From an uncultured delta proteobacterium (GTDB taxonomy: Bacteria; Desulfobacterota; Binatia; UBA9968): a DNA stretch of 43,714 bases. Both the position numbers and the translations under genes were made by a program. Of the stretch, positions 4,162 through 19,815 are shown piece by piece (the first letter of the stretch is position 1; every line of letters begins with the position of its first letter). The stretch lies in the NCBI GenBank assembly GCA_963755715.1, contig CAVWLW010000047.1, positions 1 to 43,714 on the forward strand. Reading direction: 5' to 3'. Under the pieces are notes generated by a model that had not been told where the DNA came from, did not search any database, and was given only the letters and a program-made list of their open reading frames with translations.

Positions 4162-5834
4162 ATGTCGTATCTGGTGATTGCACGGAAATGGCGTCCGCAA
4201 ACCTTTGCGGATATCGCCGGGCAGGAGCATATTACCCGAACCCTGCAGAACGCCATCCGCGCCAATCGGATTCCACACGCATTTCTGTTCACCGGCGTGC
4301 GCGGAGTAGGCAAAACAACCGCAGCGCGAATTCTCGCCAAGGCGTTGAATTGCGATAATGGGCCAACCGCTACTCCGTGTGGCGTCTGCGCTCAATGTCA
4401 TGAGATTGCCCAGGGCAATTCGATCGACGTTCTCGAAATCGACGGTGCGTCCAATCGCGGCATCGATGAGATTCGCCAGATCATCGAAAATGTCCGCTAT
4501 CAACCGGCTCAATGCCGATTTAAGATTTACATCATCGATGAAGTTCATCAGGTCACCAAAGATGCGTTCAACGCGTTGTTGAAGACTTTGGAAGAACCTC
4601 CGCCATCGGTCAAATTTATTCTCGCGACCACCGAACCGCATCGCCTGCCGGCGACCATTCTTTCGCGTTGCCAGCGTTACGATTTTCGCCGCATTAGTTT
4701 GCGGGAAATCGTCCAGCGGCTCGACGCGATCGCAAAAAGCGAAGGTCTTAAGATCACCGAAGGAGCGTTGGTTTTGCTGGCACGCGAGGCTGACGGCAGC
4801 ATGCGCGACGCGCAATCTCTGTTGGAACAGGTGCTCGCTTTCGGGGCGCCCATGCAGGATAGCGCGGTGCAGGAAGTCGATGAAGTTCTCTTGCAGGAGA
4901 TTCTCGGCCTGGCGCAGCGGCGCACACTTTACGAAATTTCAGCGGCGGTGCTTCAGGCCGACGCGCGAAAATGCGTCGAGTTGGTAGCCCAAACTGTGCA
5001 CCAAGGTTGCGACATCGGCCGTCTGGCGCGCGATCTGGTGGAACATTTCAGAAATCTTCTAGTCGTGCGACTTGCGCCGGGCGGCGGCACCAGCCCATCG
5101 GCTGCGCTCCAAACGTTTGCTGGTGGTGGACAGCTGTTGGACTTGCCCGACCAGGAGATGGTCGATCTGGCCGAGCAGGCGCGGCCGATCTCGATCGACA
5201 CACTGCTTGACTATTTCGACTTTATGGCGGCCGGTGAAGAGGAGATTGCCCGTTCCACGACGCCGCGATTCGCCTTGGAAAGTACTTTGATTCGTCTAGC
5301 CGGTTTGCCCCAAACGCTGCCAGTGACAGAATGGATCGAGCGTTTAGAACGGTTGGAGGCAAAAGCTTCATCGGGCGGGCGCACCGAAAGCTTAGCGCCG
5401 CGTAGAGAGAAGGTCGCGGCGCCAGCCGAGCCGTCGGCGGTGATTGCCGGGACCGTCGAGCCGGACGCTGGCGCGACCGGCGGCTGGCGTGAGTTTATTG
5501 CTTTTGTCGGTCGTGAAAAAAAATTCTTGGCATCGCATCTCGAATCCGGCGTGCCGCTTGAGTTAGCCTCCGGGCATATGAAGATTGGCGTGGCCGAACG
5601 CCAGCATTTGGCTTTTTTGCTCGACAGCGATAATCTTTCGAGCCTGCGCGATCTGGCCAAAAGATTTTTCGCGCAGGACGTCACCGTGCAAATCGTCAAT
5701 CTTGCCGCCGACGGCGTGCCAAAGTCGGCCGACCCGTTCGGGCCTGCGGCCGGAGGTACGGCGACGAACGCAGCCCGATGGTTAAAGAAGCGCTGCGTAT
5801 TTTCGGCGGCTCCGTGCGCAACGTGCGGCGATAA
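4162..5834 (+). CDS. dnaX: DNA polymerase III subunit gamma/tau (apparent 1-nt deletion near 5760)
   Basis: ARKWRPQTF, GVRGVGKTT, IDEVH, SRC; the family-like C-terminus SPMVKEALRIFGGSVRNVRR* is in the -1 frame ending TAA 5834. Confidence 0.9.
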
Positions 5835-5889
5835 AACAATTAGCGTTTGCACTTTTCGTAAAGGACGGTCAGAGGCGAGGAGAAAGACA

Positions 5890-6213
5890 ATGGCGAGTAT
5901 CGGCGCGATGGGCAATCTGTTGAAACAGGCTCAAGACATGCAGGCGCGAATGGCCAAGATACAGGAAGAGCTGGCTAACAAAACCGTCGAGGGATCGGCC
6001 GGCGGCGGCATGGTCCAGGTCACCGTCAACGGTCAGTTCAACGTCACGGCGGTTAAAATAGAAGCGTCGGTGATCAACGCCGCGGAAAAGGACATGTTGG
6101 AAGATCTCATTCTCGCGGCGGTCAACGACGGCGTGCGCAAAGCGCGTGACTTGGTGTCGTCGGAAATGAGTAAAATCACCGGAGGACTGAAGATCCCAGG
6201 ACTGATGCCATGA
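5890..6213 (+). CDS. ybaB: YbaB/EbfC nucleoid-associated protein
   Basis: MGNLLKQAQ.MQ...GSAGGGMV...LEDLILAAVND; own ATG with GAGGAG RBS; between dnaX and recR. Confidence 0.93.
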   Translation: MASIGAMGNLLKQAQDMQARMAKIQEELANKTVEGSAGGGMVQVTVNGQFNVTAVKIEASVINAAEKDMLEDLILAAVNDGVRKARDLVSSEMSKITGGLKIPGLMP

Positions 6214-6830
6214 GTTTGTATCCCGCCCCGCTCGCTCGCCTCGTCCAGGAATTATCGAAGCTTCCCGGCATCGGAGAAAAAACCGCGGCTCGTTTGGCCT
6301 TTCACATGTTGAAGGGAACAAGGGATGATGTTTTACGTTTGGCCGACAGCATCGGCAAGTTGCGCCAGGAGATGGGACTCTGTCAAGGCTGCTTCGGTTT
6401 TAGCGAAATCCACGCGCAAAACGAAGACGGCACGCGCTGCGATATTTGCCGCAATCTCGAGCGCGAACGCGACAAGATTTGCGTGGTCGAAGAACCGTCT
6501 GACTTGATCGCCGTCGAAAAGTCGCATGAGTTCCGTGGGCTCTATCACGTTCTGCATGGGACGATTTCGCCGCTCGACGGCATGGGGCCGGACGCCTTGC
6601 GCATCAAAGAACTGCTCGAGCGATTGCGTGACGGCGGCGTGCGCGAGGTAATTGTCGCGACCAATCCGACCATGCAAGGCGAAGCGACGGCGCTTTACCT
6701 CTCGAAGGTCATCAAGCCGATGGGTGTTTCGGTCACGCGCATCGCGCGCGGTCTACCAATGGGCGGCGATCTTGAGTACACCGACGCCGTAACTTTGGGA
6801 AAAGCTTTGGAAGGAAGGCGGGAAATCTAA
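6210..6830 (+). CDS. recR: recombination mediator RecR
   Basis: LPGIGEKTAARLAF HhH, C4 zinc finger, YHVLHG, TOPRIM ATNPT.QGEATA, GLPMGGDLEY. Confidence 0.97.
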   Translation: MSLYPAPLARLVQELSKLPGIGEKTAARLAFHMLKGTRDDVLRLADSIGKLRQEMGLCQGCFGFSEIHAQNEDGTRCDICRNLERERDKICVVEEPSDLIAVEKSHEFRGLYHVLHGTISPLDGMGPDALRIKELLERLRDGGVREVIVATNPTMQGEATALYLSKVIKPMGVSVTRIARGLPMGGDLEYTDAVTLGKALEGRREI

Positions 6831-6859
6831 GCATCCGTTTGTTCGACGACGTTTTTACC

Positions 6860-7894
6860 TCAGCGCAAAATCTTTCTCGCGATATCGATCGCCACCCAGC
6901 ATAACATCGCGATCAACGCCGATGCCGGGATCGTCAAGACCCACGCCCAAACAATTCTTCCGGCGACATTCCAGCGCACCGAGCGAAGCCGTCTAAGCGA
7001 GCCGACGCCGACGATAGCGCCAGTGATTGTATGAGTGGTCGAGACGGGGATACCGAAATGAGCCGCGCTGAAAAGCGTCATCGCCCCCGCCGCTTCGGCG
7101 GCGAAACCGCCGATGGGTTGCAGGCGGGTGATCCTCGATCCCATCGTGTGAACGATGCGCCAGCCGCCCGACAGAGTGCCGAGACTGATGGCAGCGTGGG
7201 CGAGTAACACGATCCAATACGGGATGGCAAGTTTGCCAACAGCGTCACTGACCAGGTAGCGATATTCGGGCACGATAAACAGCGCTCCAGCGATGATCCC
7301 CATGGTCTTTTGCGCGTCGTTGGTGCCGTGACCGAGGCTATACGCCGCCGCGGAGATCAGCTGGCCGCGGCGAAAAATGTGATCCACGTTGGACGGGATC
7401 GAACGTTTAAATATATTAAGAATGAGGACGAGATTCAGCATTCCCAGTCCCATGCCCAATAACGGGGCCAGTACGATGAAGATCAGCGTGTTGACCCATC
7501 CGGCGGGAATAATGACACCCAGGCCGGCTTTGGCGATTCCCGCGCCGGCATAGGCGCCGATCAGCGCGTGCGAGGAACTGGTCGGCAAACCGACGTACCA
7601 GGTAATCAGATCCCAAGCGATCGCGCCGAGCAGCCCGGCGAGAATCACATAGGCATCCACTTGTTGAACGTCGAGCAGGCCGCTGCCAATGGTTTTGGCG
7701 ACGGCGGTGCCAAAGGTAAACGCCGCGACAAAGTTCCAGACCGCCGCCCAAGCGACCCCTTGGAGCGGTGTCAGCACGCGGGTGGAAACGACGGTCGCAA
7801 TCGAGTTTGCGGCATCGTGAAAGCCATTGACGTAATCGAAGATCAACGCGATCGCGATGATCAGAACGGTCAAAACGAAAATCGGATCAGCCAT
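6860..7894 (-). CDS. pit: inorganic phosphate transporter, PiT family
   Basis: NGFHDAANSIAT, GLPTSSSHAL, HGTNDAQK, PVSTTH signatures. Confidence 0.95.
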   Translation of the reverse strand: MADPIFVLTVLIIAIALIFDYVNGFHDAANSIATVVSTRVLTPLQGVAWAAVWNFVAAFTFGTAVAKTIGSGLLDVQQVDAYVILAGLLGAIAWDLITWYVGLPTSSSHALIGAYAGAGIAKAGLGVIIPAGWVNTLIFIVLAPLLGMGLGMLNLVLILNIFKRSIPSNVDHIFRRGQLISAAAYSLGHGTNDAQKTMGIIAGALFIVPEYRYLVSDAVGKLAIPYWIVLLAHAAISLGTLSGGWRIVHTMGSRITRLQPIGGFAAEAAGAMTLFSAAHFGIPVSTTHTITGAIVGVGSLRRLRSVRWNVAGRIVWAWVLTIPASALIAMLCWVAIDIARKILR

Positions 7895-8516
7895 TTTTGA
7901 TCACGACTCGTTGCAATACGTCGGCCACGTCTTCCATCGTGTCGGTGGTTTCCTCGAGCATCTCGTAAATTTCTTTCCAGCGAATTAAATTATAGAGGTC
8001 GTCCTTGTGGTTGACGATTTCCACAAGCGCTTCGCGCAGGATCCGGTCGCCGTTGTTCTCGATCGTATTGATTTCCTTGATATGCTCCGTCACGAGGCGA
8101 AAATTCTTTTTTTCTCGAAGGTTGGGCATCGCCATATGAAGTTCGCCGGCGCCGCTGCGGATCAGATGCCCCAGTTGACGCGCCTTTTCTGTCGGAGCCT
8201 CGATGCGAAAAATCAGCATGCGCACGGCCGTCGCTTCGATTTTGTCTACCGAATCGTCGAGAGCGGAGATCAGTCGTTCGACATCTTCGCCGTCCAACGG
8301 AATGATGAGCGTGTGCATCAGCAGATGCATGACCTCGTGCACGATAAAATCGCCGCGGTGCTCCAACTCGGTGATCCGGGCGACTTTGCTTTCTACCTGC
8401 TCGTAGTGGTCCAAAAGATCTTCCAATGCCTCCGCCGCCTCGAGTAAATTGCCGGTGGCTTTTTCGAACCACTCGTAGAATTTCGTCTCAGCTGGCAGGA
8501 ACTGAAATTTTGCCAT
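7887..8516 (-). CDS. DUF47 phosphate transport regulator (PhoU-like)
   Basis: ELEHRGD, IENNGD, IRWKEIYEMLE..TD..EDVAD; overlaps pit start. Confidence 0.93.
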   Translation of the reverse strand: MAKFQFLPAETKFYEWFEKATGNLLEAAEALEDLLDHYEQVESKVARITELEHRGDFIVHEVMHLLMHTLIIPLDGEDVERLISALDDSVDKIEATAVRMLIFRIEAPTEKARQLGHLIRSGAGELHMAMPNLREKKNFRLVTEHIKEINTIENNGDRILREALVEIVNHKDDLYNLIRWKEIYEMLEETTDTMEDVADVLQRVVIKNG

Positions 8517-8626
8517 GTTCGCTCCAAAAATCGGCTATGAGATGGAAGTTTGAATAAAAGGAATCGGGACGCGATGGAATCTAGCATGCGTCCAGAGTGG
8601 CTTCAACCGAAACGAGTGGTCGAGGA

Positions 8627-10843
8627 TCAGGAAAACAGCTGGCGCACGCGGGTCTGAATGTCATCGCGGGTGGCGCGAAAAGCGCTTATGACTTGTTGCT
8701 CGTCGCCGACCGCTCGGGTGGGATCGGCGAGCGGCCAGCGACTATGCTTGGCTCGGGGCGCCAGCGCAGCGCACGGTTCGTCCGCGTCGCCGCACAGCGT
8801 CACGACGTGATCAATCCTGTCGAGCGGGATCGCGTCTACGGCTTTGGCGTACTGCTTGGATATATCGATACCGGATTCGTGCATCACCCGGATGGCGAGC
8901 GGATGAAGCGATTTCGGCTCTGTTCCCGCGCTGTAGATCTTATATCGATCCGATGCCAATTGGCGCGCGAAGCCTTCCGCCATTTGGCTGCGGCAAGAGT
9001 TGGCCACGCAGAGAAATAGGATCGCTTCTTGATCCTTTTTGATTTCCGCCGCGATCGGCAAACGGACGCGTACCGTGGTACCTTTTTTCAGCACGCTTTC
9101 GATCGTTAGGTCGCCCTTGTGCGCTTGGACGATATGCTTGACAATCGCCAACCCTAACCCCGTGCCGCCGAGATCGCGCGAGCGTGCTTTATCGACTCGA
9201 TAAAATCGTTCGGTGAGACGTGGCAAGTCCTTTTCTGGGATGCCCGGTCCAGTGTCGCTCACGGTGATTTCAATATAGCGGTCATGGTTGGTGTTCTGGT
9301 TCGCGCTGCTCGTGGCGGTCAGCGAGACTTGGCCGCCGGCCGGCGTGTACTTGATCGCGTTGTCGACTAGATTGATGAACAATTGCTGCAAGCGGTCGAG
9401 GTCGCCGGCGAGTTTCGGCAGCCCCGGTGTAACTTTGTGCGCCACGGTAATTTTTTTTCTGGCAGCCTGGTCCCAAAACACTTCCAGCACGCGCTGGATC
9501 AGGTGGCCAGCGTCGACGGCTTGAACGGCCAATTGAATTTTGCCGGATTCTAAATCCGACAAAGTGAGCAAATCTTCGGTTAAGCGGCTCAGTCGCTCGG
9601 AGTGACGATCGATGATTTCGAGAAACTGCCGGCTATCTTCAGGGTCCGACGGCGGCGTGTGCAGCAAAGTTTCGACGTAGCCGCGAATGGCCGTCAGTGG
9701 AGTGCGCAGTTCGTGCGAAACGTTTGCCACGAAATCCGAGCGCATCGATTCGAATCGTTTGATGTTGGTCGTATCATGGAACACCAGGATGGAGCCGAGA
9801 AAATCGCCACGAGTGTCGCGCAAGCGCACCGCGTTGACGTGAAACCAACGGTCCTCGTCGAGCTCGATCTGCTTTGAATAGAGCTGCGCGGAGAAATCAA
9901 ACATCAGCACTTCTTCGAGAATCCTATGCACCTCCGGATGGCGCGAGATTTCAAGAATCGAAACCCCGTGAACATCCTTGCCGGCGGGAACATGAAACAT
10001 CGACAACGCTTGCTCGTTCATGACTAAAACCCGCCCCCTGGGATCCAGCACCAGCACCCCTTCGATCATGCAGCGTAAGATGGAATCGGCTTTTTCTTTT
10101 TCCGCCATCACTTGCTGGAGATTGTCTCGAATCTTGAGACTCATCTCATTCAGGTGTTGTTCGACCAAGGCAATCTCATCCTTGCCGTGGGTGAGAAAAA
10201 AGTTCTGTGGAAAGGAGCCGCCCGCCACCTGCCCGGAAAACTGCACCAGACGTTGAAAACGCCGAGTCAAACGCCGGGAAAAAACCCAGGCTAGAACCAG
10301 CCCGGCCGCGGCAGCGACTGCGAGGCCGGCAAGAAGCGAGCGCCGAAAAGAATCGATCACATTATCGATATCCGTGAGCGGTACGGCCACGCGGACGATT
10401 CTTTCCTGGCCGGCGCCAGTTTGATGGAAGGCGCGATAAAGCATGTTGTATCGGACGGTAGTGCTGTAGCGAGTCGCGCGTCCGGTTCCGGAGCGCATGG
10501 CCTCGATCACCTCGGGACGGTTGGCGTGGTTCTCCATCTGCGCCGAGACTTCCGCAGAATCGCCGAGCACGCGACCGTCAGGAGCGATTACTGTGATGCG
10601 TGAGCCGAGCTCGCCGGCGAGTTGGCGGCAGACAGCGTCGAGAGTGACGCCGGTGAGATCGAACGGAACCACGCGCGCGAGCAGGTGCGCTTCCTGCTCC
10701 ATCCGTTCGCTCAGGGAGTCGATATAGAAGTTGCGCAGCAGCGCGTTCGAAGAATAATAAAGACCCAGGAAGAGCAGCGCGATGACGGCAAGATAGGAAA
10801 GGAAGATTTTTGTGACGAGACTACTGTTCCAAAGCCTTTTCAT
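8627..10843 (-). CDS. phoR: PhoR sensor histidine kinase with C-terminal ArsC/LMW-PTP domain
   Basis: 2 TM, HAMP, PAS, NVSHELRTPLT, N/G boxes, FYRVDKARSR, then ILFLCVANSCRSQMAEG...TLCGDADEPC...WPLADP (8627-9025); start may be 10861. Confidence 0.92.
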   Translation of the reverse strand: MKRLWNSSLVTKIFLSYLAVIALLFLGLYYSSNALLRNFYIDSLSERMEQEAHLLARVVPFDLTGVTLDAVCRQLAGELGSRITVIAPDGRVLGDSAEVSAQMENHANRPEVIEAMRSGTGRATRYSTTVRYNMLYRAFHQTGAGQERIVRVAVPLTDIDNVIDSFRRSLLAGLAVAAAAGLVLAWVFSRRLTRRFQRLVQFSGQVAGGSFPQNFFLTHGKDEIALVEQHLNEMSLKIRDNLQQVMAEKEKADSILRCMIEGVLVLDPRGRVLVMNEQALSMFHVPAGKDVHGVSILEISRHPEVHRILEEVLMFDFSAQLYSKQIELDEDRWFHVNAVRLRDTRGDFLGSILVFHDTTNIKRFESMRSDFVANVSHELRTPLTAIRGYVETLLHTPPSDPEDSRQFLEIIDRHSERLSRLTEDLLTLSDLESGKIQLAVQAVDAGHLIQRVLEVFWDQAARKKITVAHKVTPGLPKLAGDLDRLQQLFINLVDNAIKYTPAGGQVSLTATSSANQNTNHDRYIEITVSDTGPGIPEKDLPRLTERFYRVDKARSRDLGGTGLGLAIVKHIVQAHKGDLTIESVLKKGTTVRVRLPIAAEIKKDQEAILFLCVANSCRSQMAEGFARQLASDRYKIYSAGTEPKSLHPLAIRVMHESGIDISKQYAKAVDAIPLDRIDHVVTLCGDADEPCAALAPRAKHSRWPLADPTRAVGDEQQVISAFRATRDDIQTRVRQLFS

Positions 10844-11546
10844 CGAATTTATAGCCGACACCTCGGAGCGTGAGTATCCATTTCGGTTTGCTGTCGTCCT
10901 TTTCGATCGCTTTTCTCAAGCGGCGAATATGGACATCGACCGTGCGCGGAGTGACGTAGGTTTCGCCGCCCCAGACCCGATCGAGCAATTGATCGCGGCT
11001 CAACACCCGGTTGGGATTCTGGACCAAAAATCGCAGAAGCTCAAATTCTTTTAATGTCAGCTTGATATTGTTTCCACGGGCGAAGACTTCATAGGTGCTG
11101 AAATCGATTTTTAGACCGCCTTTGTCGTAGGCCGGTAAATTGTCCGTCGGCTTGGCGCTTTCCACCCGTCGCAGGATGGCCCGCACCCGCGCGACGAGCT
11201 CGCGCGGGCTGAAAGGTTTGGTCAGATAGTCGTCGGCGCCCATTTCAAGACCGACAATGCGGTCCGCTTCGCCCGCTTTGGCGGTAAGCATGAGCACGGG
11301 CAGTCTTTCAGTCTCTGAACGTTCGCGAAGGATCTTGCACAGTTCCATACCGGATAATCCGGGCAACATCAGATCCAAAATGACCAGATCCGGTTTGTCC
11401 CGCTGGACGATCTTTAACCCTTGCTCGCCGTCTTCGGCTTCCAGAACCTTGAAGCGCTCTTGAGCCAGGTTGTAGTTGACGAGCTTGCGGATATCCGGCT
11501 CGTCTTCGACGATTAAAATCTTTTGTCCGGTTTTTGCCATTTTCAC
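10821..11546 (-). CDS. phoB: phosphate regulon response regulator (OmpR/PhoB family)
   Basis: REC (VEDE, ILDLMLP, KPF) plus winged helix (RTVDVHIRRLR, RGVGY); in pst operon. Confidence 0.93.
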   Translation of the reverse strand: MKMAKTGQKILIVEDEPDIRKLVNYNLAQERFKVLEAEDGEQGLKIVQRDKPDLVILDLMLPGLSGMELCKILRERSETERLPVLMLTAKAGEADRIVGLEMGADDYLTKPFSPRELVARVRAILRRVESAKPTDNLPAYDKGGLKIDFSTYEVFARGNNIKLTLKEFELLRFLVQNPNRVLSRDQLLDRVWGGETYVTPRTVDVHIRRLRKAIEKDDSKPKWILTLRGVGYKFDEKALEQ

Positions 11547-11552
11547 ACGCTA

Positions 11553-12239
11553 TTATATTGACGGTGGCAATTCTTTCATGTGACGGATGCTTTTGCCTTT
11601 GACCATGAAGATGACCATTTCCGCGATATTCGTCGCGTGGTCGGCCATGCGCTCGAGGTATTTCGAAATCGCGCTGATTTTAATCGCGCGACTCACGGTG
11701 TGCGGGTCCTCGATCATGAAAGTGATGACTTCGCGGAAGATCTGGCTGTTGAGCTGATCGATCTCTTCGTCATCCTTGCAGACCTTGAGAGCGAGGCTCG
11801 TGTCCTCGCGCACGAAAGCGTCCAAGCTTTCGCGGGTCATTCGTTGGGCGATACGGGCCATACGCGGGATATCGATATAGGGTTTGAGCTGCGGCTCCTG
11901 GTTAAGCTCCAGGGCTCGCTCGCAGGTGTTAACGGCCATGTCGCCGATCCGTTCGAGATCGGTGGTGATTTTCAAACCCGTCGTGATGAAGCGCAAATCC
12001 TTTCCTGCCGGTTGATGCAAGGCGAGCAGACGAATGCACAGATCGTCGATTTCCACGTCCAGACGATTTACTTCGTGGTCGCGCTCGATGATGATCTTCG
12101 CCAGCTCGGAATCGCGGTCGACCAGCGATTTGACGGCTTTTTGGATCTGATCCTCGACCAGCCCGCCCATGTAGAGAATCTCCTCATGGAGCTTTTTCAG
12201 GTCTTCTTCGTATTTCTTGTCGGTATGTTCCGCTTTCAT
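11553..12239 (-). CDS. phoU: phosphate signaling complex protein PhoU
   Basis: QPAGKDLR, DLERIGD, LERMADHATNIAE. Confidence 0.97.
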   Translation of the reverse strand: MKAEHTDKKYEEDLKKLHEEILYMGGLVEDQIQKAVKSLVDRDSELAKIIIERDHEVNRLDVEIDDLCIRLLALHQPAGKDLRFITTGLKITTDLERIGDMAVNTCERALELNQEPQLKPYIDIPRMARIAQRMTRESLDAFVREDTSLALKVCKDDEEIDQLNSQIFREVITFMIEDPHTVSRAIKISAISKYLERMADHATNIAEMVIFMVKGKSIRHMKELPPSI

Positions 12240-12249
12240 GGCGCACCTC

Positions 12250-13122
12250 TTAGCCGAATCGGCCAGTGATGTAATCTTCAGTCTGGCGTTTTTGCGGCGT
12301 CGTGAACAGCGTTCCGGTTTCGCCGAACTCGATCAACTCGCCTACGTAGAAAAAAGCGGTGTAATCCGATACCCGGGCCGCCTGTTGCATATTGTGCGTG
12401 ACGATGACAATGGTCACCGTTTCCTTCAGCTCGTGAATAAGCTCCTCGATCTTGGTCGTGGCGATGGGATCGAGCGCGGAGCAGGGCTCGTCCATCAGCA
12501 GGACGTCGGGATCAACTGCCAGCGCCCGCGCGATACAGAGTCGTTGCTGTTGGCCGCCGGAAAGACTTGTTCCGGGCTGCTTCAGCTTGTCTTTGACTTC
12601 GTCCCATAGCGCGGCGTTTTTGAGGCTCTTCTGGACTTTTTCCGCGATGAGCTGGTGGTCGCGAATGCCATTTAATTTATAGCCCGATGCAACGTTGTCG
12701 TGGATCGACATGCTAGGAAACACGTTCGGTTTTTGAAATACCATGCCGACGCGCCGGCGGACGTCGACGGGATCAACCCCGGGTCCGTAAAGATCCTGGC
12801 CATCGAGCAGCACTCTGCCTTCGACGCGGCCACCGGGTGTGACTTCGTGCATTCGGTTAAGGCACCGGATAAAAGTCGACTTGCCGCAGCCCGATGGTCC
12901 GATCAAAGCCGTTACTTTGTTCGTTCCTATCGAAAGATCGATGTCCTTAACGGCTTGGAAGTCTCCGTAATAAACATTCAATTGCTCTACTTTGAGCCGT
13001 AGCTGTTCCGGCGCAATCGAAGGTTCAGTCTTCGAAGAACGAGATTCATCGTCGCTTTTTCGGCTTTTCCTTTCGCCGGATGTGAATCTTTCTTCCTTCA
13101 TCTGCAGTCCCCCGTTATTCAT
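12250..13122 (-). CDS. pstB: phosphate ABC transporter ATPase
   Basis: [40 protein letters not shown]. Confidence 0.97.
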
Positions 13123-13981
13123 GTGATTTCCCCCTCAAGAATGCTCGGGTCATGACGCTTGTCACCAATACTACCATCATCAATACGAAAGAGGCAGCCC
13201 AGGCTTTTTGGTGCCAGTCGTCATAGGGACCGGTCGCGTAAGTATAGATCAGCATCGGTACGGTCGCGATGGGCTTGCCGAGATTCAAATTCCAAAACGG
13301 ATTGCCGAACGCGGTGAACAGCATCGGCGCCGCTTCTCCCAGGGCTCGGGAAAAAGCCAAGACGGCGCCGGTGAGTAACGCCGTCCGCGACACGGGTAAC
13401 ACGACACCGAGGATCGTCCGCCATTTCGGCACGCCGAGAGCTAAAGAGGCTTCGCGCAAAGACGACGGAACCAGCCGGAAGGCTTCATGGGATGTGATCA
13501 GTATGATCGGAACCATGATGAAGGCATAAGCGATGGACCCCGATAATCCGGAGAACGAACCCATGGGTCGAACCACCATTTCGTACGCGAACAGACCAAC
13601 AACGATGGACGGTACGCCGGTCAGGACTTCCGCCATGAAGCGCACAGTTCTGCCGAGTCGCGCGCTGGGAAATTCGTTGACGAAGATCGCGGCGCCGAGA
13701 CCAATGGGCATCGCGATCAGTACGGCGCATGCCACAACCAGCACACTGCCAACCAGCGCATTGGCAATACCGCCACCGGACTCGCCGGGAGGCAAGGGCA
13801 AACCGGTAAGAAAGTTCCAGTCGATCGCCGACGCGCCGTTGTAGATCACGTAGCCGAGAATCATAAATAGAAAAAATACCGTCACGGCGGTGCAAAGCAC
13901 CATACCCGCGCCGGCCAACCGTTCCGTGGCTCGGCGGAATTGATAGTGGCGGCGCTCAGCTGCGCTATGTTGGTTGACCAT
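13115..13981 (-). CDS. pstA: phosphate ABC transporter permease
   Basis: [27 protein letters not shown]. Confidence 0.95.
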
Positions 13982-13992
13982 GATTCAGCCTT

Positions 13993-14985
13993 TCATTCAA
14001 ACACGGCAACATGCCCTTTCGATAACCGCCAGATGAGATACTGCGCACACAAACTAATGATGATGGTAATGCCGAATAGAACCAATCCGACGTAGATCAG
14101 GGAGGAAACATACAGGCTATAGGTTGCTTCAGTAAATTCACTGGCGATTTGACTGGCCATGCTGTGCACCGGATCAAAAAGTGAATGGATCATCGCGAAA
14201 GAATTGCCACCGACCATCGTTACGGCCATCGTCTCGCCAATGGCTCGGCCAAGACCGAGAATGACTGCGCCAAATAGCCCGACCCGGGCGTAAGGTAAAG
14301 CGACCTGCCAGATTGATTCCCATTTGGTCGCGCCCAAGGCCAGCATGCCCTCGATCTGCGGGCGCGGCACGGTTAGTAAAATATCCCGCGAGACAGCGGT
14401 GATAATCGGAATGATCATGATCGCGAGAATCACGCTGCCGGAAAGCACGCCGACACCGTAAACCGCCGGACCGTCGAACAGGAAAAACCAGCCGAAATTT
14501 GCCTTGAGCCAGATTTGCAATGAGCGGATCACTGGCACCATAATGAACAAAGCCCACAGGCCGAACACGATACTGGGAACGCCGGCCAGTAATTCGATCG
14601 GATACGAAATGAAGGGGCGGAGCCATTTCGGTAGATAGAAGCTGATGAAAACCGCCGAACCGATACTGATAGGCACGGCAAGCAAGAGGGCGATGAAAGC
14701 CTTGACCAGTGTGCCAATGATAGTCGGCAGTGTGCTGAACTCGCGCTTAACGGGGTCCCAGGTAGTTCCGACCAGGAATTTCAGGCCGAAAGTCTGAATC
14801 GCCTCCCACGCGCCGCGGAAGAGATCGAACACCAACAAGAAAGCTAGAAGGATTACAATAAGAGCAAAGGCTTGCGTTACGCGGTAGAATAATCGATCGC
14901 CGACATTGATGACTCGCGTGTCATGGTGTACGACTCTCGCCGCGCTCCCGGTAGAAAATGTGCTATCGATAGTTTGGTCGCTCAT
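13993..14985 (-). CDS. pstC: phosphate ABC transporter permease
   Basis: ELLAGVPSIVFGLW, LALGATKWE, GRAIGETMAV; ATG 14985 with GGGAG RBS. Confidence 0.95.
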   Translation of the reverse strand: MSDQTIDSTFSTGSAARVVHHDTRVINVGDRLFYRVTQAFALIVILLAFLLVFDLFRGAWEAIQTFGLKFLVGTTWDPVKREFSTLPTIIGTLVKAFIALLLAVPISIGSAVFISFYLPKWLRPFISYPIELLAGVPSIVFGLWALFIMVPVIRSLQIWLKANFGWFFLFDGPAVYGVGVLSGSVILAIMIIPIITAVSRDILLTVPRPQIEGMLALGATKWESIWQVALPYARVGLFGAVILGLGRAIGETMAVTMVGGNSFAMIHSLFDPVHSMASQIASEFTEATYSLYVSSLIYVGLVLFGITIIISLCAQYLIWRLSKGHVAVFE

Positions 14986-15008
14986 TAAGCTTCTCCCGGG
15001 AAAAGTTA

Positions 15009-15044
15009 TGCGCAGCCGACACACCGCTCCATGCCGGCTGCGCA
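15009..15044. terminator. pstS-pstC intergenic stem-loop
   Basis: 10-bp inverted repeat tgcgcagccg/cggctgcgca flanked by A/T runs. Confidence 0.6.
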
Positions 15045-15062
15045 GAAAAAAACGAAGATGGC

Positions 15063-16127
15063 TTACTTCAAAACGATCTGGTTGTTGACTTTTATCTTTT
15101 TTGTCAGGGCTTCAGCTTTTTTGACCGCGACTCCCTTCAACGCCGCGTAGTCCAACGGTGTCGCGTACTTCTGGCCATCATGAAGCATCCACCACGCGAG
15201 ATTTGCCACCGCATCCCCCTTCGCAGCATCGGTTTGATTTTCGTACACCAGCAGCCACGTGAAGCCGGAAATCGGGTAAGCGCTGGGGTTTGCGCTATCG
15301 GTAATGGAAACTTCCATGTTGTCTGGAAGATTGGCGACGTCGGCCGCTGCAGCCGCGCCTTCCAGGCTTGGATCGAGAAATTTCTTCGCCTTATTTTGCA
15401 TCTGCGCCCATGGGATTTTGTTCTGCTTGGCGTAAGCCACTTCGACGTATCCGATCGCGCCGGGAATTTGCTTTACGGAGTTTGCGACGCCCTCATTTCC
15501 CTTACCCCCCACGTCTCCTGGCCAGTTGACTGAAGTCGCCGAACCCACTTTCTCTTTCCACTCGGAGCTGACTTTCGCGAGGTAATCCGTGAAGATGAAG
15601 GTTGTTCCGGAACCGTCCGAGCGGTGTACTACGGCCACGGTCAAATCGGGAAGTTTGACACCCGTGTTTGCGGCCGCAATCCGCTTATCGTTCCAGTTAG
15701 TAATTTTCTTTAGATAGATGTCGGCCAGAACGTCTGGGGTGAGCTTTAGTTGGCTTGTGTTAACACCCGGCAGATTAAAAACCACCGCCACGGCGCCTGA
15801 AACCATAGGGATATGTAGCACCGCGCCACCTTTGGCAGCCGCTTTTTGCTTTTCATCCATGATGCCGTCCGATGCGCCAAAATCCACAGTCATTTCACTG
15901 AGCTGTCGAATTCCGCCGCCCGAGCCGATCGATTGATAATTTACTTTCACACTGCATGCTTTATCGTACTCACTAAACATCTTTGAGTAGAGCGGATAAG
16001 GAAATGTAGCGCCCGCTCCCGTCATCTCTTTGACGCCCTTGGCCGGGCATCCTGCCGCCAAGACCTGCGTCGCGCTTACGGATAGCGCCGCGATTGCAAA
16101 CCCTAGCAAAATCTTCTTAACGCTCAT
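15063..16127 (-). CDS. pstS: phosphate ABC transporter substrate-binding protein
   Basis: Signal peptide, GAGATFP, YQSIGSGGG, DFGASD, RSDGSGTT, YPISGFTW. Confidence 0.97.
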   Translation of the reverse strand: MSVKKILLGFAIAALSVSATQVLAAGCPAKGVKEMTGAGATFPYPLYSKMFSEYDKACSVKVNYQSIGSGGGIRQLSEMTVDFGASDGIMDEKQKAAAKGGAVLHIPMVSGAVAVVFNLPGVNTSQLKLTPDVLADIYLKKITNWNDKRIAAANTGVKLPDLTVAVVHRSDGSGTTFIFTDYLAKVSSEWKEKVGSATSVNWPGDVGGKGNEGVANSVKQIPGAIGYVEVAYAKQNKIPWAQMQNKAKKFLDPSLEGAAAAADVANLPDNMEVSITDSANPSAYPISGFTWLLVYENQTDAAKGDAVANLAWWMLHDGQKYATPLDYAALKGVAVKKAEALTKKIKVNNQIVLK

Positions 16128-16168
16128 TCAATTACCCTCCTCTTTTTCTTGTTAATTAAGCGCCGATT

Positions 16169-16207
16169 GTTACGGCAAGGTTACGGAATCGTTAAGCTTG
16201 GGATAAC
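16169..16207 (-). promoter_or_regulatory. Pho-box-like array upstream of pstS
   Basis: GTTAC/GTTAC/GTTAA/GATAA at 16169, 16180, 16191, 16202 (11-bp period). Confidence 0.7.
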
Positions 16208-16300
16208 AGCGCAGGGGCTTCGACAACGGGACCGGATTTTCATAGACTGGCTTGCAATGCTTCTCATTGTCGCTTTCGACGGAAGAGTTATTGTTCGGTG

Positions 16301-16339
16301 GTGAATGCTGTGTTAAGGAACGGTAAAAAACCTGTTAAT
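16301..16339. promoter_or_regulatory. second Pho-box-like array in the pstS / TMK-like divergent region
   Basis: GTGAA/GTTAA/GTAAA/GTTAA at 16301, 16312, 16323, 16334 (11-bp period). Confidence 0.55.
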
Positions 16340-16485
16340 AAAAGTACGAAATTGGCGGATTACAGTCGCGGCGTAATCTAAATTTAACGGAACGGCTGGC
16401 AAATTACGTATGCAAAAAGCCGTTTCCTTTGATACGTTGCTTCGCCGTGAATGGTAACTTTTGGGAGTGATTGGATAGGACGACT

Positions 16486-17220
16486 ATGGCTGGTGGAATG
16501 AAAATGTACGGCAAACACCGCTTTCCCGGGCGTCTGTTTATCGTCGAAGGGATCGACGGCTCGGGCAAAAGCACGCAGTTAATGCTGTTGCAGAAATGGC
16601 TCGAGTCCGAAGGTTATGTGGTTTATTTCAGCGAATGGAATTCCTCGCCGCTGGTGCATGAGGTGACCAAGCGCGGCAAGAAAAAGAAGATGTTAACCGG
16701 GATGACGTTTAGCCTGATTCATGCCACCGATTTCGCGGACCGCACCGAGCATCATATCATTCCGCCCCTCAAAGCCGGTGCGGTGGTACTCGCGGATCGG
16801 TACATTTACACGGCGTTCGCGCGCGACGTCGCGCGCGGTGTGAGCCCCAAGTGGGTACGAGATCTATACGCTTTTGCGGTAAAACCGACCGTAGCCTTCT
16901 ACTTTCGCACGCCCTTGGATGTGGCAATGAAGCGCATCCTTGGCGGCCGCGACGCGCTTAAATACTATGAGGCGGGAATGGATCTCGGCTTGAGCGACGA
17001 TATCGAAGAGAGTTTCGGCCTGTTTCAAAGCCGAATCATCGAAGAGTACGAAAAGATGATCGACGAGTTCGGCCTGGTGGCCATCGATGCGACGCGCTCG
17101 ATCGAGGAACAGCAAGCGGAAGTACGCCGTATTGTATCCGAAGCATTGGCCGGCACCAAAAAGACGAGGATTAGACGATGGCTGGATTTAGCTTCTTTGG
17201 CGAAGGGCTCGCGGGCATAG
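16486..17220 (+). CDS. thymidylate kinase-like protein A (candidate polyphosphate kinase subunit)
   Basis: VEGIDGSGKSTQ P-loop, ADRY, YYEAGMDLGLS; divergent from pstS. Confidence 0.88.
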   Translation: MAGGMKMYGKHRFPGRLFIVEGIDGSGKSTQLMLLQKWLESEGYVVYFSEWNSSPLVHEVTKRGKKKKMLTGMTFSLIHATDFADRTEHHIIPPLKAGAVVLADRYIYTAFARDVARGVSPKWVRDLYAFAVKPTVAFYFRTPLDVAMKRILGGRDALKYYEAGMDLGLSDDIEESFGLFQSRIIEEYEKMIDEFGLVAIDATRSIEEQQAEVRRIVSEALAGTKKTRIRRWLDLASLAKGSRA

Positions 17221-17879
17221 ATCTCGCGGAGCTCAAGGGCAAACTGATCGTTTTGGAAGGGACCGACGGCGTCGGCCGTTCGACGCACATCGGCTTGTTG
17301 AAACAATGGCTGGAAAATCACGGTCATGCGGTTTTGGACACCGGCATGACCCGTTCGGCGTTGGCGGGAAAAAGGCTCAAGCAGGCAAAAGAAGGGCATA
17401 CCCTCGGAGGCATTACTATGAGCCTGTTCTACGCCACCGATTTCGCCGATCGTTTGGAGAACGAGATTATTCCGGCGCTGCGCGCGGGATTCGTCGTGTT
17501 GACCGATCGCTACATTTATTCGCTCATAGCGCGCGCCATCGTGCGCGGCTCGGATCCGGAATGGCTGCGTGAAGTCTACGGCTTTGCGCTGAGGCCCGAC
17601 GCCATTTTTTACTTGCGCTTGCAAATTGACGATCTCGTCACGCGCGTTTTACAGAGTCGGGGATTCGACTACTGGGAATCGGGAATGGATATGCACATGG
17701 GCGAAGACATGTACGAGAGCTTTGTCCGCTATCAGAAATGGCTGCTTGCTGAATTCGACAAGATGGTCGAGACCTTTGGCTTTCAAATCGTCGATGCTTC
17801 CGGTTCCGTCGAAGAGGTGTTTGAGAACTTGCGCGATCGAGTCGATCGGGTGATCGCGCGCAACGGTTACGGCTCCTGA
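17178..17879 (+). CDS. thymidylate kinase-like protein B (candidate polyphosphate kinase subunit)
   Basis: LEGTDGVGRSTH (P-loop Lys to Arg), TDRY, YWESGMD; overlaps gene A by 43 nt. Confidence 0.88.
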   Translation: MAGFSFFGEGLAGIDLAELKGKLIVLEGTDGVGRSTHIGLLKQWLENHGHAVLDTGMTRSALAGKRLKQAKEGHTLGGITMSLFYATDFADRLENEIIPALRAGFVVLTDRYIYSLIARAIVRGSDPEWLREVYGFALRPDAIFYLRLQIDDLVTRVLQSRGFDYWESGMDMHMGEDMYESFVRYQKWLLAEFDKMVETFGFQIVDASGSVEEVFENLRDRVDRVIARNGYGS

Positions 17880-18796
17880 GCGGCTGGTTCGGCCGAGGAT
17901 TCGCTCAAGCCGAGGTCGGTGGAGTCTTCGGCAAGCTTTTCTGCTTTTGCGATGAACTCGTCGATCGTCGCCTGATCGCGCTGTTTCTCTCGCTCCATTT
18001 CCAAAAGGAGAGCGCGGCACATGCCCGGCTCTTCCGCCAAAAAATCAGGCCGGCCGATAAATTCAGCCACATAGCGGCGCAAGACCGAGCGATCGCGCCA
18101 ATCGCCGAGATCATCCTGCAGAGCTTTTAGACCCTGCACTAATTTTTTTACCGAAGTATCGCCGAGCTCGGCAATCGATTCGGCTTGATAGCGCAAGCGT
18201 TTGCCGGAAATACGAAAGGCATGAATTTGTTCGTTTTGGGGCTGTGCTTTCGCCGAGACGAGCGCATTGCGCCATTCGGCAAGCGCTTCTCTCGAGCGTT
18301 GCCAGAGCGGATCAGCGCCCTCGGGTTCCTGATCGATATTTTCAATGCGCGCTTGGACGCGCCCGATGAATTCGATCAGGTCATGTCGTTTTAGCTCGGC
18401 GCAGGCTCTGTCGATCTCCGTGGCGCGCTTTTCCTCAAGCCAAAGTCGCACCGCGTCCCAGGAATGGCGCATCGATACCGCGGTCGTCGCTTCGAGTTTT
18501 GCTTGAATCAAGCCTATGCAGGCATCGACATTGCGGCAGGCGCCGAAGGCGCGACGAACTCTGCGCAAGACCTTAAAGAGTTTTCGGTTGACCGATTTCG
18601 AATGGGGCGGCAACACCCGCAGCGCCTGCTGGAGGCGGCGGCTGGCGACGCGCAGGTCATGGACGATTTCCGGATCATCGCTTACTAGGGCTTTGGGGTA
18701 GAGCGTAACGAAGCGCTCGAGACGTTTGCGCGCCAATTTTACCAATTTGCTTTTTAGCGCAGGATCACGAGTCAGTTGAGCTGGAAGCGCATTCAC
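17867..18796 (-). CDS. CHAD domain polyphosphate-binding protein
   Basis: VHDLRVASRRL, RNVD, IHAFRISGKRLRY, LQDDLGDWRD. Confidence 0.92.
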   Translation of the reverse strand: MNALPAQLTRDPALKSKLVKLARKRLERFVTLYPKALVSDDPEIVHDLRVASRRLQQALRVLPPHSKSVNRKLFKVLRRVRRAFGACRNVDACIGLIQAKLEATTAVSMRHSWDAVRLWLEEKRATEIDRACAELKRHDLIEFIGRVQARIENIDQEPEGADPLWQRSREALAEWRNALVSAKAQPQNEQIHAFRISGKRLRYQAESIAELGDTSVKKLVQGLKALQDDLGDWRDRSVLRRYVAEFIGRPDFLAEEPGMCRALLLEMEREKQRDQATIDEFIAKAEKLAEDSTDLGLSESSAEPAAQEP

Positions 18797-18819
18797 TGTG
18801 AATAGGTCCTGTAGCGAGG

Positions 18820-19365
18820 TTAGCCAAGCTGCCGCAACTGTTTAGGTGTCAAAAACCAATGAAGTTTACCGGGTGCGGCAACTGGGAGCGTGTCGATTTC
18901 AATGCGGCAGAGGCCGCCTTTTTTGAATTCAAAAACAAGATTAGCGGGTTTCCGCCCGCCCAGCAAATAGGCCGCTGTATTGGATAACAAAGGCTCGTGC
19001 CCCACCATTAGCACGTGCTGCCGATCTTGATAGCGCGTCAAGCCAAACATCAGATGTTCCACCGTGCTCTCGGGCGCCAGCCCGGAGATTTCTTCGAGCT
19101 GGGCTTCCATGCCGAGAGTGCTGGCGACGATGTCCGCGGTCTGGCGCGCGCGCGATAAAGGACTGGTCAATATAGAATCGAACCGGATGGCAAGCTCGCG
19201 CAGGCCCTTGGCGGCCTTGCGCATTCGTTTCACGCCTTTGCCGGTGAGCGGGCGTTCGGCATCATGGGCGACGGATGGATCGTCACGCGTCAGGGCAATG
19301 CCATGCCGCATCAGATAAAGATTCATGATCCGGTCCGGAGCGTGCGGTGTCATCGAGCCGTTCAT
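18820..19365 (-). CDS. sixA: phosphohistidine phosphatase SixA
   Basis: LYLMRHG, RPLT..G, TSPLSRARQTA, VGHEP, FKKGG; start may be ~19326. Confidence 0.92.
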   Translation of the reverse strand: MNGSMTPHAPDRIMNLYLMRHGIALTRDDPSVAHDAERPLTGKGVKRMRKAAKGLRELAIRFDSILTSPLSRARQTADIVASTLGMEAQLEEISGLAPESTVEHLMFGLTRYQDRQHVLMVGHEPLLSNTAAYLLGGRKPANLVFEFKKGGLCRIEIDTLPVAAPGKLHWFLTPKQLRQLG

Positions 19366-19802
19366 GCATTGTTGCGCCAGTGATCGAGAAACAGCGCGAA
19401 TACGCGCTTATCGATCTCGTCGCGCTCTTCGCGCAGCTCCGAAATCGGCGCGCCGTCAACGCGCTCTGTAGGATTCGCGGCGCGCACGGGCCAGTTTTCG
19501 ACCTTGACTCGTCCGGGCAAATTGGCGCATTTTTTATGAGCGTCGCCAAAGCTCACGACTAAATCGATGTCTTGGATCGGCACTTCCGCCAAGCCCTTGC
19601 TGGTTTGGCCGCTCATGCTGATGCCAAGCTCTTGCATCGCCTGAACCACCCGCGGCGGAATGGAGCTAGGCTTGACACCAGCGCTGAAGATTCGCGTGCG
19701 CGGCGGCGCCAGGTGCTTGGCGGTTGCTTCGGCCATTTGGCTGAGGCACGCATTGTCCTCACAGAGAAAGAGAATGTTTCGATCGATATGTCCACGTCGC
19801 AT
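19362..19802 (-). CDS. ArsC/LMW-PTP fold protein with degenerate active site
   Basis: ILFLCEDNACLSQMAE, SAG..P, MQELGISMSGQTSK; GGGAGGA RBS before ATG 19802. Confidence 0.85.
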   Translation of the reverse strand: MRRGHIDRNILFLCEDNACLSQMAEATAKHLAPPRTRIFSAGVKPSSIPPRVVQAMQELGISMSGQTSKGLAEVPIQDIDLVVSFGDAHKKCANLPGRVKVENWPVRAANPTERVDGAPISELREERDEIDKRVFALFLDHWRNNA

Positions 19803-19815
19803 AGGATCCTCCCGT

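Follow-up and report, generated by a model that had tools for sequence, protein, structure and literature searches.

A PhoR-type sensor kinase with an intact-looking arsenate reductase module closes the pst-pho gene array in a family of uncultured soil bacteria

The stretch of DNA analyzed here (the window) comprises 43,714 nucleotides of contig CAVWLW010000047.1 (GenBank assembly GCA_963755715.1) from an uncultured delta proteobacterium of the GTDB lineage Desulfobacterota; Binatia; UBA9968. The last gene of its pstSCAB-phoU-phoB-phoR array encodes a PhoR-type sensor kinase that continues into a complete thioredoxin-type ArsC module of the low-molecular-weight phosphatase (LMWP) fold. The fusion is real, inherited, and in frame, and occurs within one family of uncultured soil bacteria. 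Both halves belong to textbook families, and it is their union that appears to be new. As to function, the best reading is a membrane-tethered arsenate reductase expressed from the Pho operon, which we put forward tentatively, at a little under an even chance.

The open reading frame (ORF) is uninterrupted from 8627 to 10861 on the reverse strand, with 744 codons counted from a GTG, and residue numbers below refer to this 744-residue frame. Translation likely begins at the ATG at 10843, because an identical (100%) database cluster, P0002, is 738 amino acids long and the consensus of 83 homologues starts MKRLW; on both counts the interval 8627-10843 given by the original prediction is exact. 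Along the protein, a transmembrane segment, an sCache-like domain, a second transmembrane segment, HAMP, PAS, HisKA, and HATPase_c domains are followed by a linker of about 10 residues and the complete ArsC module (Table 1). Hydropathy places the membrane segments that flank the sCache domain at about residues 12-43 and 174-197. The phospho-acceptor His383 lies in the motif SHELRTPL (codon 9713-9715) and is invariant in the 83 homologues. The strings GTTVRVRLP, AAEIKKDQEA, ILFLCVANSCRSQMAEG, VVTLCGDADEPC, and WPLADP are all present in the translation, in which the predicted Met-less linker into ArsC also proved to be free of stops. Among homologues the linker varies in sequence and is constant in length at 10-13 residues. 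An inverted repeat, AGGATC...GATCCT (9018-9036), lies exactly over the linker-coding stretch and is probably meaningless, the scan from which it came having run near chance.

The PF01451 (LMWPc) profile covers positions 1-144 of 144 in the module. The closest solved structure is ArsC from B. subtilis (1jl3, E 4.5e-35, aligned residues 4-133), and Cys618, Arg624, Cys690, Cys697, and Asp713 fall on residues 10, 16, 82, 89, and 105 of the 1jl3 chain. These are the nucleophilic Cys, the P-loop Arg, the two resolving Cys, and the catalytic Asp of the ArsC class. The oxyanion loop Cys618-VANSC-Arg624-Ser625 matches 1jl3 residues 10-17, the resolving pair lies within TLCGDADEPC, and the catalytic Asp713-Pro714 is present. 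The K+ site of the class (Asn13, Glu21, Ser36, and Asp65) is also matched in this alignment. The earlier claim of a PhoR-type kinase joined to an intact-looking ArsC, complete with CX5R loop, two resolving Cys, and Asp-Pro, is thus borne out by the Pfam architecture, the 1jl3 alignment, and the catalytic set.

The Cys-Arg-Cys-Cys-Asp set is complete in 110 of 121 fused homologues. Position by position, Cys618 is conserved in 117 of them, Arg624 in 120, Cys690 in 116, Cys697 in 115, Asp713 in 120, and Pro714 in all 121. The retention of both resolving Cys favors a tethered reductase, because a redox relay needs them and a phosphatase does not. The original prediction had offered three functions: a phosphate or arsenate sensor tuning the kinase, a tethered reductase co-induced with Pst, and a signaling phosphatase. 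The last, in which the module would hydrolyze an acyl phosphate or a phosphorylated protein (phospho-PhoB, the phospho-His of PhoR, or a phospho-Tyr/Arg substrate, for example) and so reset the pathway, is disfavored by these near-invariant Cys residues, and we consider it improbable. The LMWPc family, the CX5R(S) loop, and the Asp-Pro are shared with low-molecular-weight phosphatases, solved examples of which match at weaker E-values (1p8a 1.6e-8; 2cwd 2.7e-5; the arginine phosphatase 4pic 1.7e-4), and a SixA gene lies 10 kb away, adjoining another LMWPc-like gene. However, arsenate reductases (1jl3 and TIGR02691) are by far the best matches, the module carries the Cys82/Cys89 pair whose absence would mark such a phosphatase, and PhoR-type kinases themselves dephosphorylate PhoB. 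The same conservation bears on an arsenic-independent thiol-redox sensor, in which the Cys relay would keep the Pho system informed of thioredoxin or oxidative status. The three-Cys relay is conserved, and thioredoxin recycles it in the known family, but Arg624 and Asp713, superfluous for a pure redox switch, are as conserved as the Cys residues, and the linkage to phosphate transporters is specific and recurrent. This reading, too, has little likelihood.

An AlphaFold2 model computed from 83 sequences reaches a mean predicted local distance difference test score (pLDDT) of 79 and a predicted template modeling score of 0.37, which is too low to fix how the domains sit relative to one another. 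The module is folded confidently (block means of about 81-93) except for block 691-700 (mean 57), part of the loop with Cys690 and Cys697, which is its least confident part. The redox loop is mobile in solved ArsCs, in agreement with this result. Linker residues 606-610 score below 50, as expected of a tether. A complex prediction for a dimer of the kinase core (residues 366-606, two copies) with the ArsC module (residues 612-744), run without controls, gave scores of 0.01 and 0.00, where the mark is 0.32, and so speaks neither for nor against an interface between them.

The kinase half has a HisKA domain with its phospho-acceptor His and a HATPase_c domain, and its gene adjoins a PhoB-type regulator and pstSCAB-phoU, an adjacency conserved in relatives. 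The fusion protein scores under every curated PhoR/PnpS cut-off (score/cut-off: TIGR02966 312.8/334.2; NF046044 PnpS 378.9/400; NF053855 226.6/500; NF008235 193.7/390). The PhoR of a sister family aligns to it over residues ~168-605 only. Database annotations of the fused proteins read merely "PhoR" or "ATP-binding protein."

Two checks proposed with the original prediction, coverage across the junction (9020-9070) and a domain-architecture search, both came out for a fusion. Fourteen DNA sequencing runs contain at least 93% of the sampled words of positions 8500-9500, and contigs were checked from three runs of three studies, none of them flagged as a possible source. Three independent assemblies span the junction with 0 gaps (X12 record 4, 8632-9500; X14 record 9, 8500-9138; X8 record 23, 8500-9142). 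The best 120 clusters for residues 480-744 in a collection of 5.8 billion proteins all carry PF01451 together with histidine kinase domains, at 62-100% identity. An indel or assembly artefact in the window genome is ruled out by the gap-free contigs, these 120 clusters, and the in-frame genomes of the family described below. A stop codon with a separate arsC start at the junction, which the original prediction had named as the sign of such an artefact, does not occur in the window genome, although natural split forms of this kind exist in genome G487 and in metagenome loci L111 and L112.

A junction-spanning query of 207 residues was searched against all 123 genomes of the order. Of the 90 family members, 37 gave stop-free matches across the junction; they span 16 of 23 genera, and the genus of the window genome accounts for 16 of them, out of its 31 genomes. 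Genome G465 is also fused, with a linker ~36 residues longer, which brings the family count to 38 of 90. Without four genomes flagged as unpublished (G493, which is fused, and G005, G482, and G485) the counts are 36 of 86, or 37 with G465. Whether orthologs are also fused has a divided answer: they are in 38 family genomes, but the junction query found no fusion in the 33 genomes of two sister families (0 of 5 and 0 of 28), nor in the 12-genome genus g276 of the same family. When 401 genomes sampled evenly from the phylum were searched, a match spanning the junction came from the window genome alone; a further 47 genomes matched in the ArsC part only, save G274, whose match covers residues 9-205 and has a TGA inside it. 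Among the best 150 matches of a module search of 1.84 billion representatives, there was one full-length representative of ~740 amino acids (P0244) and a few fragments with HATPase_c and LMWPc. An ArsC-alignment search of genome contigs yielded, among the matches listed, free-standing ArsCs only, at no more than 52% identity and mostly from Bacillota plus other phyla, and no fused locus. The source names of close relatives are Candidatus Binatia/Binatota, "Deltaproteobacteria," and other labels of metagenome-assembled genomes; Binatia is a class within Candidatus Binatota.

Synteny across the genus is conserved as pstB-phoU-phoB-phoR(-arsC)-DUF47-Pit, and the state of the module within it varies. 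In the split form (G487, at locus L106, and L111 and L112) an intact arsC ORF lies just past the phoR stop within the pstB-phoU-phoB-phoR array. In a tree of the module, free-standing ArsCs of 134-145 amino acids with their own Met nest in the fused clade, and the smallest clade holding 115 of the 119 fused sequences also includes 51 others. Remnants follow the phoR stop elsewhere: G014 has ...ILLM*SSDSWRSQ..., in which a stop interrupts the P-loop, G018 has lost the middle of the module and keeps a fragment from either side, and G515 has a frameshifted copy of ~30% identity. In G003 a single frameshift separates two otherwise good halves, G019 also shows a frame change, and no ArsC remnant was found after phoR in G011, G013, and G008. 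In a kinase-core tree of 22 loci, the absent and remnant states are nested among fused ones in at least 4-5 places, and the split forms are basal. The root of this tree, the short-form kinases L111 and L112, was chosen by us, and the polarity from split to fused to lost is to be read with that choice in mind.

On this rooting, arsC would first have sat directly after phoR, closing the pst-phoU-phoBR operon, and loss of the phoR stop would have fused the two genes, once. Split forms and decayed remnants together point to an operon neighbor that was fused and later lost repeatedly. These comparisons largely show a fusion ancestral to much of the family, with a module that appears to have decayed later and independently in several lineages; we infer at least 4-5 independent losses. 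Decay or deletion in so many relatives, with the frame changes in G003 and G019, could also mark the module as a near-neutral passenger heading to decay, or the junction as an assembly or indel artefact. This is very improbable. Three independent assemblies bridge the junction, 38 of the 90 family genomes, from 16 genera, have the module in frame, 110 of 121 proteins retain every catalytic residue, and in seven distant orthologs of the genus module identity is 56-62%, with 64-75% for the kinase part (93% and 95%, respectively, in G001).

The fusion gene is last in the pstSCAB-phoU-phoB-phoR array, in which intergenic gaps range from -23 to 38 nucleotides and phoB overlaps the phoR start by 23 nucleotides. 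It is followed by genes for a DUF47/PhoU_div protein and a Pit/PHO4 transporter. The neighbors of the module are the pst, phoU, phoB, DUF47, and Pit genes, with no ars gene among them. Upstream of pstS there is a perfect direct repeat in the 7-4-7 layout of a Pho box (PMC4563254). At this candidate Pho box 4 overlapping windows were scored, against 0.5 +/- 1.1 in shuffles. Genome-wide the 7-4-7 repeat is not enriched at up to 2 mismatches (33 sites, versus 83 in the reversed control), and of two sites with 1 mismatch to the candidate box, one is inside ORFs and the other is not before a clear gene. A promoter and terminator scan of 6700-16600 ran near shuffle level (8 versus 5.7 +/- 2.1, and 17 versus 11.2 +/- 3.3). 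One contig from an RNA library (X15 record 17) matches 8717-8959, within the module, with full identity, which does not show transcription; the other five RNA runs contain ~0.21-0.22 of the words of the region.

Arsenate is a toxic mimic of phosphate that enters by the same transporters and is most dangerous under phosphate starvation. In the tethered-reductase reading, starvation would activate PhoR-PhoB and raise expression of pstSCAB-phoU-phoBR, so that the reductase would be made in step with uptake. Its tether would keep it at the membrane, close to Pit and the Pst/PhoU/PhoR complex, where it would reduce arsenate brought in by the phosphate transporters. The attack on arsenate would come from Cys618 in the CX5R loop, with Asp713 as the acid; Cys690 and then Cys697 would resolve the adduct to a surface disulfide, and thioredoxin would recycle the enzyme. 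Arsenite would leave by separate routes, such as the MIP and MFS proteins of an ars operon that lies on a different contig. The state of the module might also feed back on the kinase, although this reading does not require it. Reductase activity, Pho-dependent expression, and location at the complex are all presumed here from sequence and gene order. Of the functions first proposed, it is the co-expressed reductase that operon position and split ancestors favor. The split forms also suggest that the module works as a separate operon product, so that covalent coupling is not required, and its repeated loss suits a conditionally useful detoxifying enzyme.

The genome of the window has a second candidate for arsenate handling. 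Contig C44 (locus L023, 3-2375, reverse strand) carries in a row genes for an ArsR-type HTH_20 protein, an ArsC-like LMWPc protein with the full Cys-Arg-Cys-Cys-Asp set, a MIP channel, and an MFS transporter. This is probably an ars operon in its own right, through which arsenite could leave the cell; it resembles the AqpS-type exit of Sinorhizobium. An argument that the lack of an arsenite exit speaks against a reductase was dropped, since this locus exists. For ArsP_1 there is one partial match in the genome, and for ArsA a 34-residue match only. In three genus genomes, Acr3 over cut-off lies on the same contig as phoR, ~14-19 kb away (G015:C11, G014:C29, and G018:C4); the corresponding place in the window genome has none.

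Free-standing relatives of the module were examined at 70 metagenome loci without Pho genes (107 flanking ORFs; four duplicate ORFs, at L128, L142, and L180, were excluded). These relatives are more distant, with ~37-50% identity to the module. At 22 of the 70 loci the neighbors include ArsR, Acr3/SBF, ArsB, ArsP, MIP, an ArsM-like methyltransferase, or DUF6428, from which it follows that the family of the module has ordinary ars-operon reductases among its free members. At 12 of the closest of these loci (L113, L114, L118, L120, L125, L127, L130, L134, L137, L143, L151, and L156) the ArsC gene comes after an MFS_2 transporter of 426-470 amino acids (452 in 10 of the 12), and at several a full-length His_Phos_1 (phosphoglycerate-mutase-like) or LysE gene follows.

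The module also occurs in other long proteins, namely ArsR-LMWPc, tandem LMWPc, LMWPc-PAS (P0310), and PhoU-LMWPc (P0303). A search with P0303 retrieved about 45 PhoU+LMWPc clusters at 32-43% identity (P0303, P0392-P0437, and P0439). At metagenome loci L174, L177, and L182 the PhoU-LMWPc gene comes after pstB, and at one of them Pit is next. Of 48 PhoU-LMWPc proteins, 2 keep the Cys-Arg-Cys-Cys-Asp set; the nucleophilic Cys is Asp in 40 and the equivalent of Cys89 is Phe in 39, and the Arg is kept in 36. Judged by these residues, most PhoU-LMWPc proteins cannot be redox arsenate reductases, and in this family the fold has been recruited to the phosphate-signaling complex independently and, for the most part, without catalytic function. 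In P0310 (300 amino acids, truncated) an intact-looking ArsC module stands N-terminal to the PAS domain, in the usual position of a sensor domain; the end of this protein resembles the start of a sigma-54 activator domain.

Several observations weigh against a tethered reductase. Sensor kinases are usually scarce and thus a poor chassis for a bulk enzyme. For plain detoxification the fused module is redundant, because C44 provides a dedicated, ArsR-linked ArsC. Neither Acr3 nor ArsB was found in the window genome, which is 93.6% complete, and within the genus Acr3 over cut-off does not go along with the fusion (3 of 16 genomes that have it, 4 of 15 that do not). That the operon is under Pho control is suggested by gene order alone, the candidate Pho box having no genome-wide support. 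The C-terminal 135 residues score 147.8 bits against TIGR02691, under the equivalog cut-off of 174.3; against NF010053 the module scores 123 with a cut-off of 215. Three fused homologues retain the module after losing two or three Cys while Arg and Asp-Pro are kept (P0101, Ser-Arg-Ser-Ser-Asp; P0105, Thr-Arg-Ser-Ser-Asp; P0076, Cys-Arg-Ser-Ser-Asp). The LMWP fold, finally, has regulatory-looking uses elsewhere, in P0310, in ArsR-LMWPc, and in the 48 PhoU-LMWPc proteins.

The main rival is a reading in which the ArsC module is an input of PhoR, a possibility that we regard as real but somewhat unlikely. Here arsenate turnover, or oxyanion binding by the P-loop, would drive a Cys690-Cys697 disulfide switch and a loop rearrangement that alter how the ATP-binding domain works together with the DHp helix; Pho output would then follow the arsenate entering through Pst or Pit, for example with uptake turned down, or with a spurious "phosphate-replete" signal set right. 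The linker of conserved length stands directly past the ATP-binding domain, the full redox set is conserved, and the loop bearing Cys690 and Cys697 is the least confident part of the modeled module. Given the dedicated ArsC of the ars operon, the fused copy may be specialized. P-loop Arg and Asp-Pro persist in the three Cys-poor homologues, and LMWP-fold modules occur on other signaling proteins (PhoU, ArsR, and a PAS regulator). PhoBR responds to arsenic in other bacteria (PMC4563254). On the other hand, the split arsC genes show that covalent coupling is non-essential, a position C-terminal to the ATP-binding domain is unusual for a sensor domain, the module has been lost repeatedly without visible compensation, and the Cys-less variants may be mere early decay. 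A broader proposal, that LMWP/ArsC-fold modules are an unrecognized cytoplasmic input of the phosphate-signaling complex, as a live enzyme-as-sensor on PhoR and as a dead, Asp-variant oxyanion-binding regulator on PhoU, is in our estimate rather doubtful.

Other features of the window are listed in Table 1. An operon-like row on the reverse strand (17867-21365) encodes Ppx/GppA, a degenerate ArsC-like LMWPc protein, SixA, and a CHAD-domain protein. The degenerate ArsC-like gene recurs at 39-45% identity ~10 kb from phoR in G004, G013, G019, G045, G471, G474, and G477. Between pstS and this row, two overlapping tandem genes on the forward strand (16471-17879) encode thymidylate-kinase-like proteins of 249 and 233 amino acids, which score 81.1 and 76.3 bits against TIGR00041, just below its cut-off of 83.25. 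At 4162-6213 on the forward strand, dnaX (DNA_pol3 gamma/tau) and a YbaB/EbfC domain (residues 587-676) share one 683-codon frame with an odd stretch between them; candidate explanations are a genuine fusion, loss of a stop, and intergenic read-through.

Table 1. Coordinates of the fusion gene, its parts, and neighboring features in the window
Feature	Coordinates	Strand	Basis or remark
phoR~arsC fusion gene	8627..10843	-	738 aa; ORF scan, Pfam, P0002, consensus start; start likely
Periplasmic sCache-like sensor domain, residues 44-144	10430..10732	-	Pfam PF16736, 45.4 bits
HAMP, residues 194-245, and PAS, residues 260-366	9764..10282	-	Pfam
HisKA/DHp, residues 373-440	9542..9745	-	Pfam PF00512, 83 bits
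HATPase_c ATP-binding domain, residues 486-603	9053..9406	-	Pfam PF02518, 112.9 bits
Linker AAEIKKDQEA, residues 604-613	9023..9052	-	no stop, no Met
Thioredoxin-type ArsC/LMWPc module, residues 614-743	8633..9022	-	PF01451, 81.9 bits (cut-off 23.2)
Catalytic codons	C618 9008-9010; R624 8990-8992; C690 8792-8794; C697 8771-8773; D713 8723-8725	-	codons checked
phoB-type response regulator	10821..11546	-	Response_reg + Trans_reg_C; TIGR02154 PhoB 275.6 bits, below cut-off 296.2
phoU	11553..12239	-	PF01895, 164.4 bits
pstB	12250-13122	-	Pfam
pstA	13115-13981	-	Pfam
pstC	13993-15024	-	Pfam
pstS	15063-16127	-	Pfam
Candidate Pho box CCGTAAC-CTTG-CCGTAAC	16169..16186	-	perfect 7-4-7 direct repeat, 59 nt upstream of pstS
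DUF47/PhoU_div	7887-8516	-	Pfam; 110 nt downstream of fusion gene; synteny conserved in relatives
Pit/PHO4 phosphate transporter	6860-7894	-	Pfam; synteny conserved in relatives
CHAD-domain protein	17867-18796	-	
SixA phosphohistidine phosphatase	18820-19365	-	TIGR00249 112.5 bits, above cut-off 74.5
Degenerate ArsC-like LMWPc protein	19362-19940	-	P-loop Arg to Leu; no Cys82 equivalent; no Asp-Pro
Ppx/GppA exopolyphosphatase	20340-21365	-	

Phosphate sensing and arsenate handling are here joined in one polypeptide across a family of uncultured soil bacteria, and in a second family, independently, PhoU has acquired a related module. Neither the PhoR-ArsC nor the PhoU-ArsC/LMWPc fusion was found described in the literature searched, to which most subscription journals did not belong. 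If the module is merely a tethered enzyme, the fusion is a tidy pairing of detoxification with uptake. Feedback on the kinase, if true, would make it a rare enzyme-as-sensor input and a handle on what PhoR senses; as a sensor, it could enable the Pho system to distinguish arsenate from phosphate and to adjust uptake accordingly. Were such modules inputs on PhoR and PhoU alike, they would bring direct ligand sensing to a pathway thought to be read only indirectly, via Pst transport. The fused, split, decayed, and Cys-less variants form a natural mutant series.

Compared with known systems, the module is closest to the ArsCs of B. subtilis (1jl3 and 1z2d/1z2e) and S. aureus pI258 (1ljl and 1jf8), with which it shares the LMWP fold, CX5R(S), Cys82, Cys89, and Asp105-Pro (E 4.5e-35 and 2e-25) and a similar length of ~130 amino acids. 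Those enzymes are free-standing products of ArsR-controlled ars operons, whereas this one is a C-terminal kinase module closing a pst-pho operon. With PhoR/PnpS-type kinases (TIGR02966, NF046044, and NF053855) the protein shares the HAMP-PAS-HisKA-HATPase_c core and a gene that comes after phoB with pstSCAB-phoU, to which it adds the periplasmic sCache-like domain and the ArsC module. The PhoU-LMWPc proteins likewise have a C-terminal LMWP/ArsC-fold module on a phosphate-signaling protein encoded beside pstB; there, however, the partner is PhoU and the module is mostly catalytically dead, whereas here the partner is PhoR and the catalytic set is intact. ArsR-ArsC fusions (P0255, P0321, P0358, P0381, and P0387) also join ArsC covalently to a regulator, but that regulator is the DNA-binding ars repressor, without a phosphate link, rather than a two-component kinase. 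Cross-talk between the Pho regulon and arsenic genes has been known only at the level of transcription (PMC4563254): PhoBR acts at low phosphate in Halomonas sp. HAL1, on aioBA, and in A. tumefaciens. Phosphate two-component signaling is tied to arsenic metabolism in those systems too, but through a transcriptional link between separate proteins that involves arsenite oxidase, and no enzyme is fused to PhoR there.

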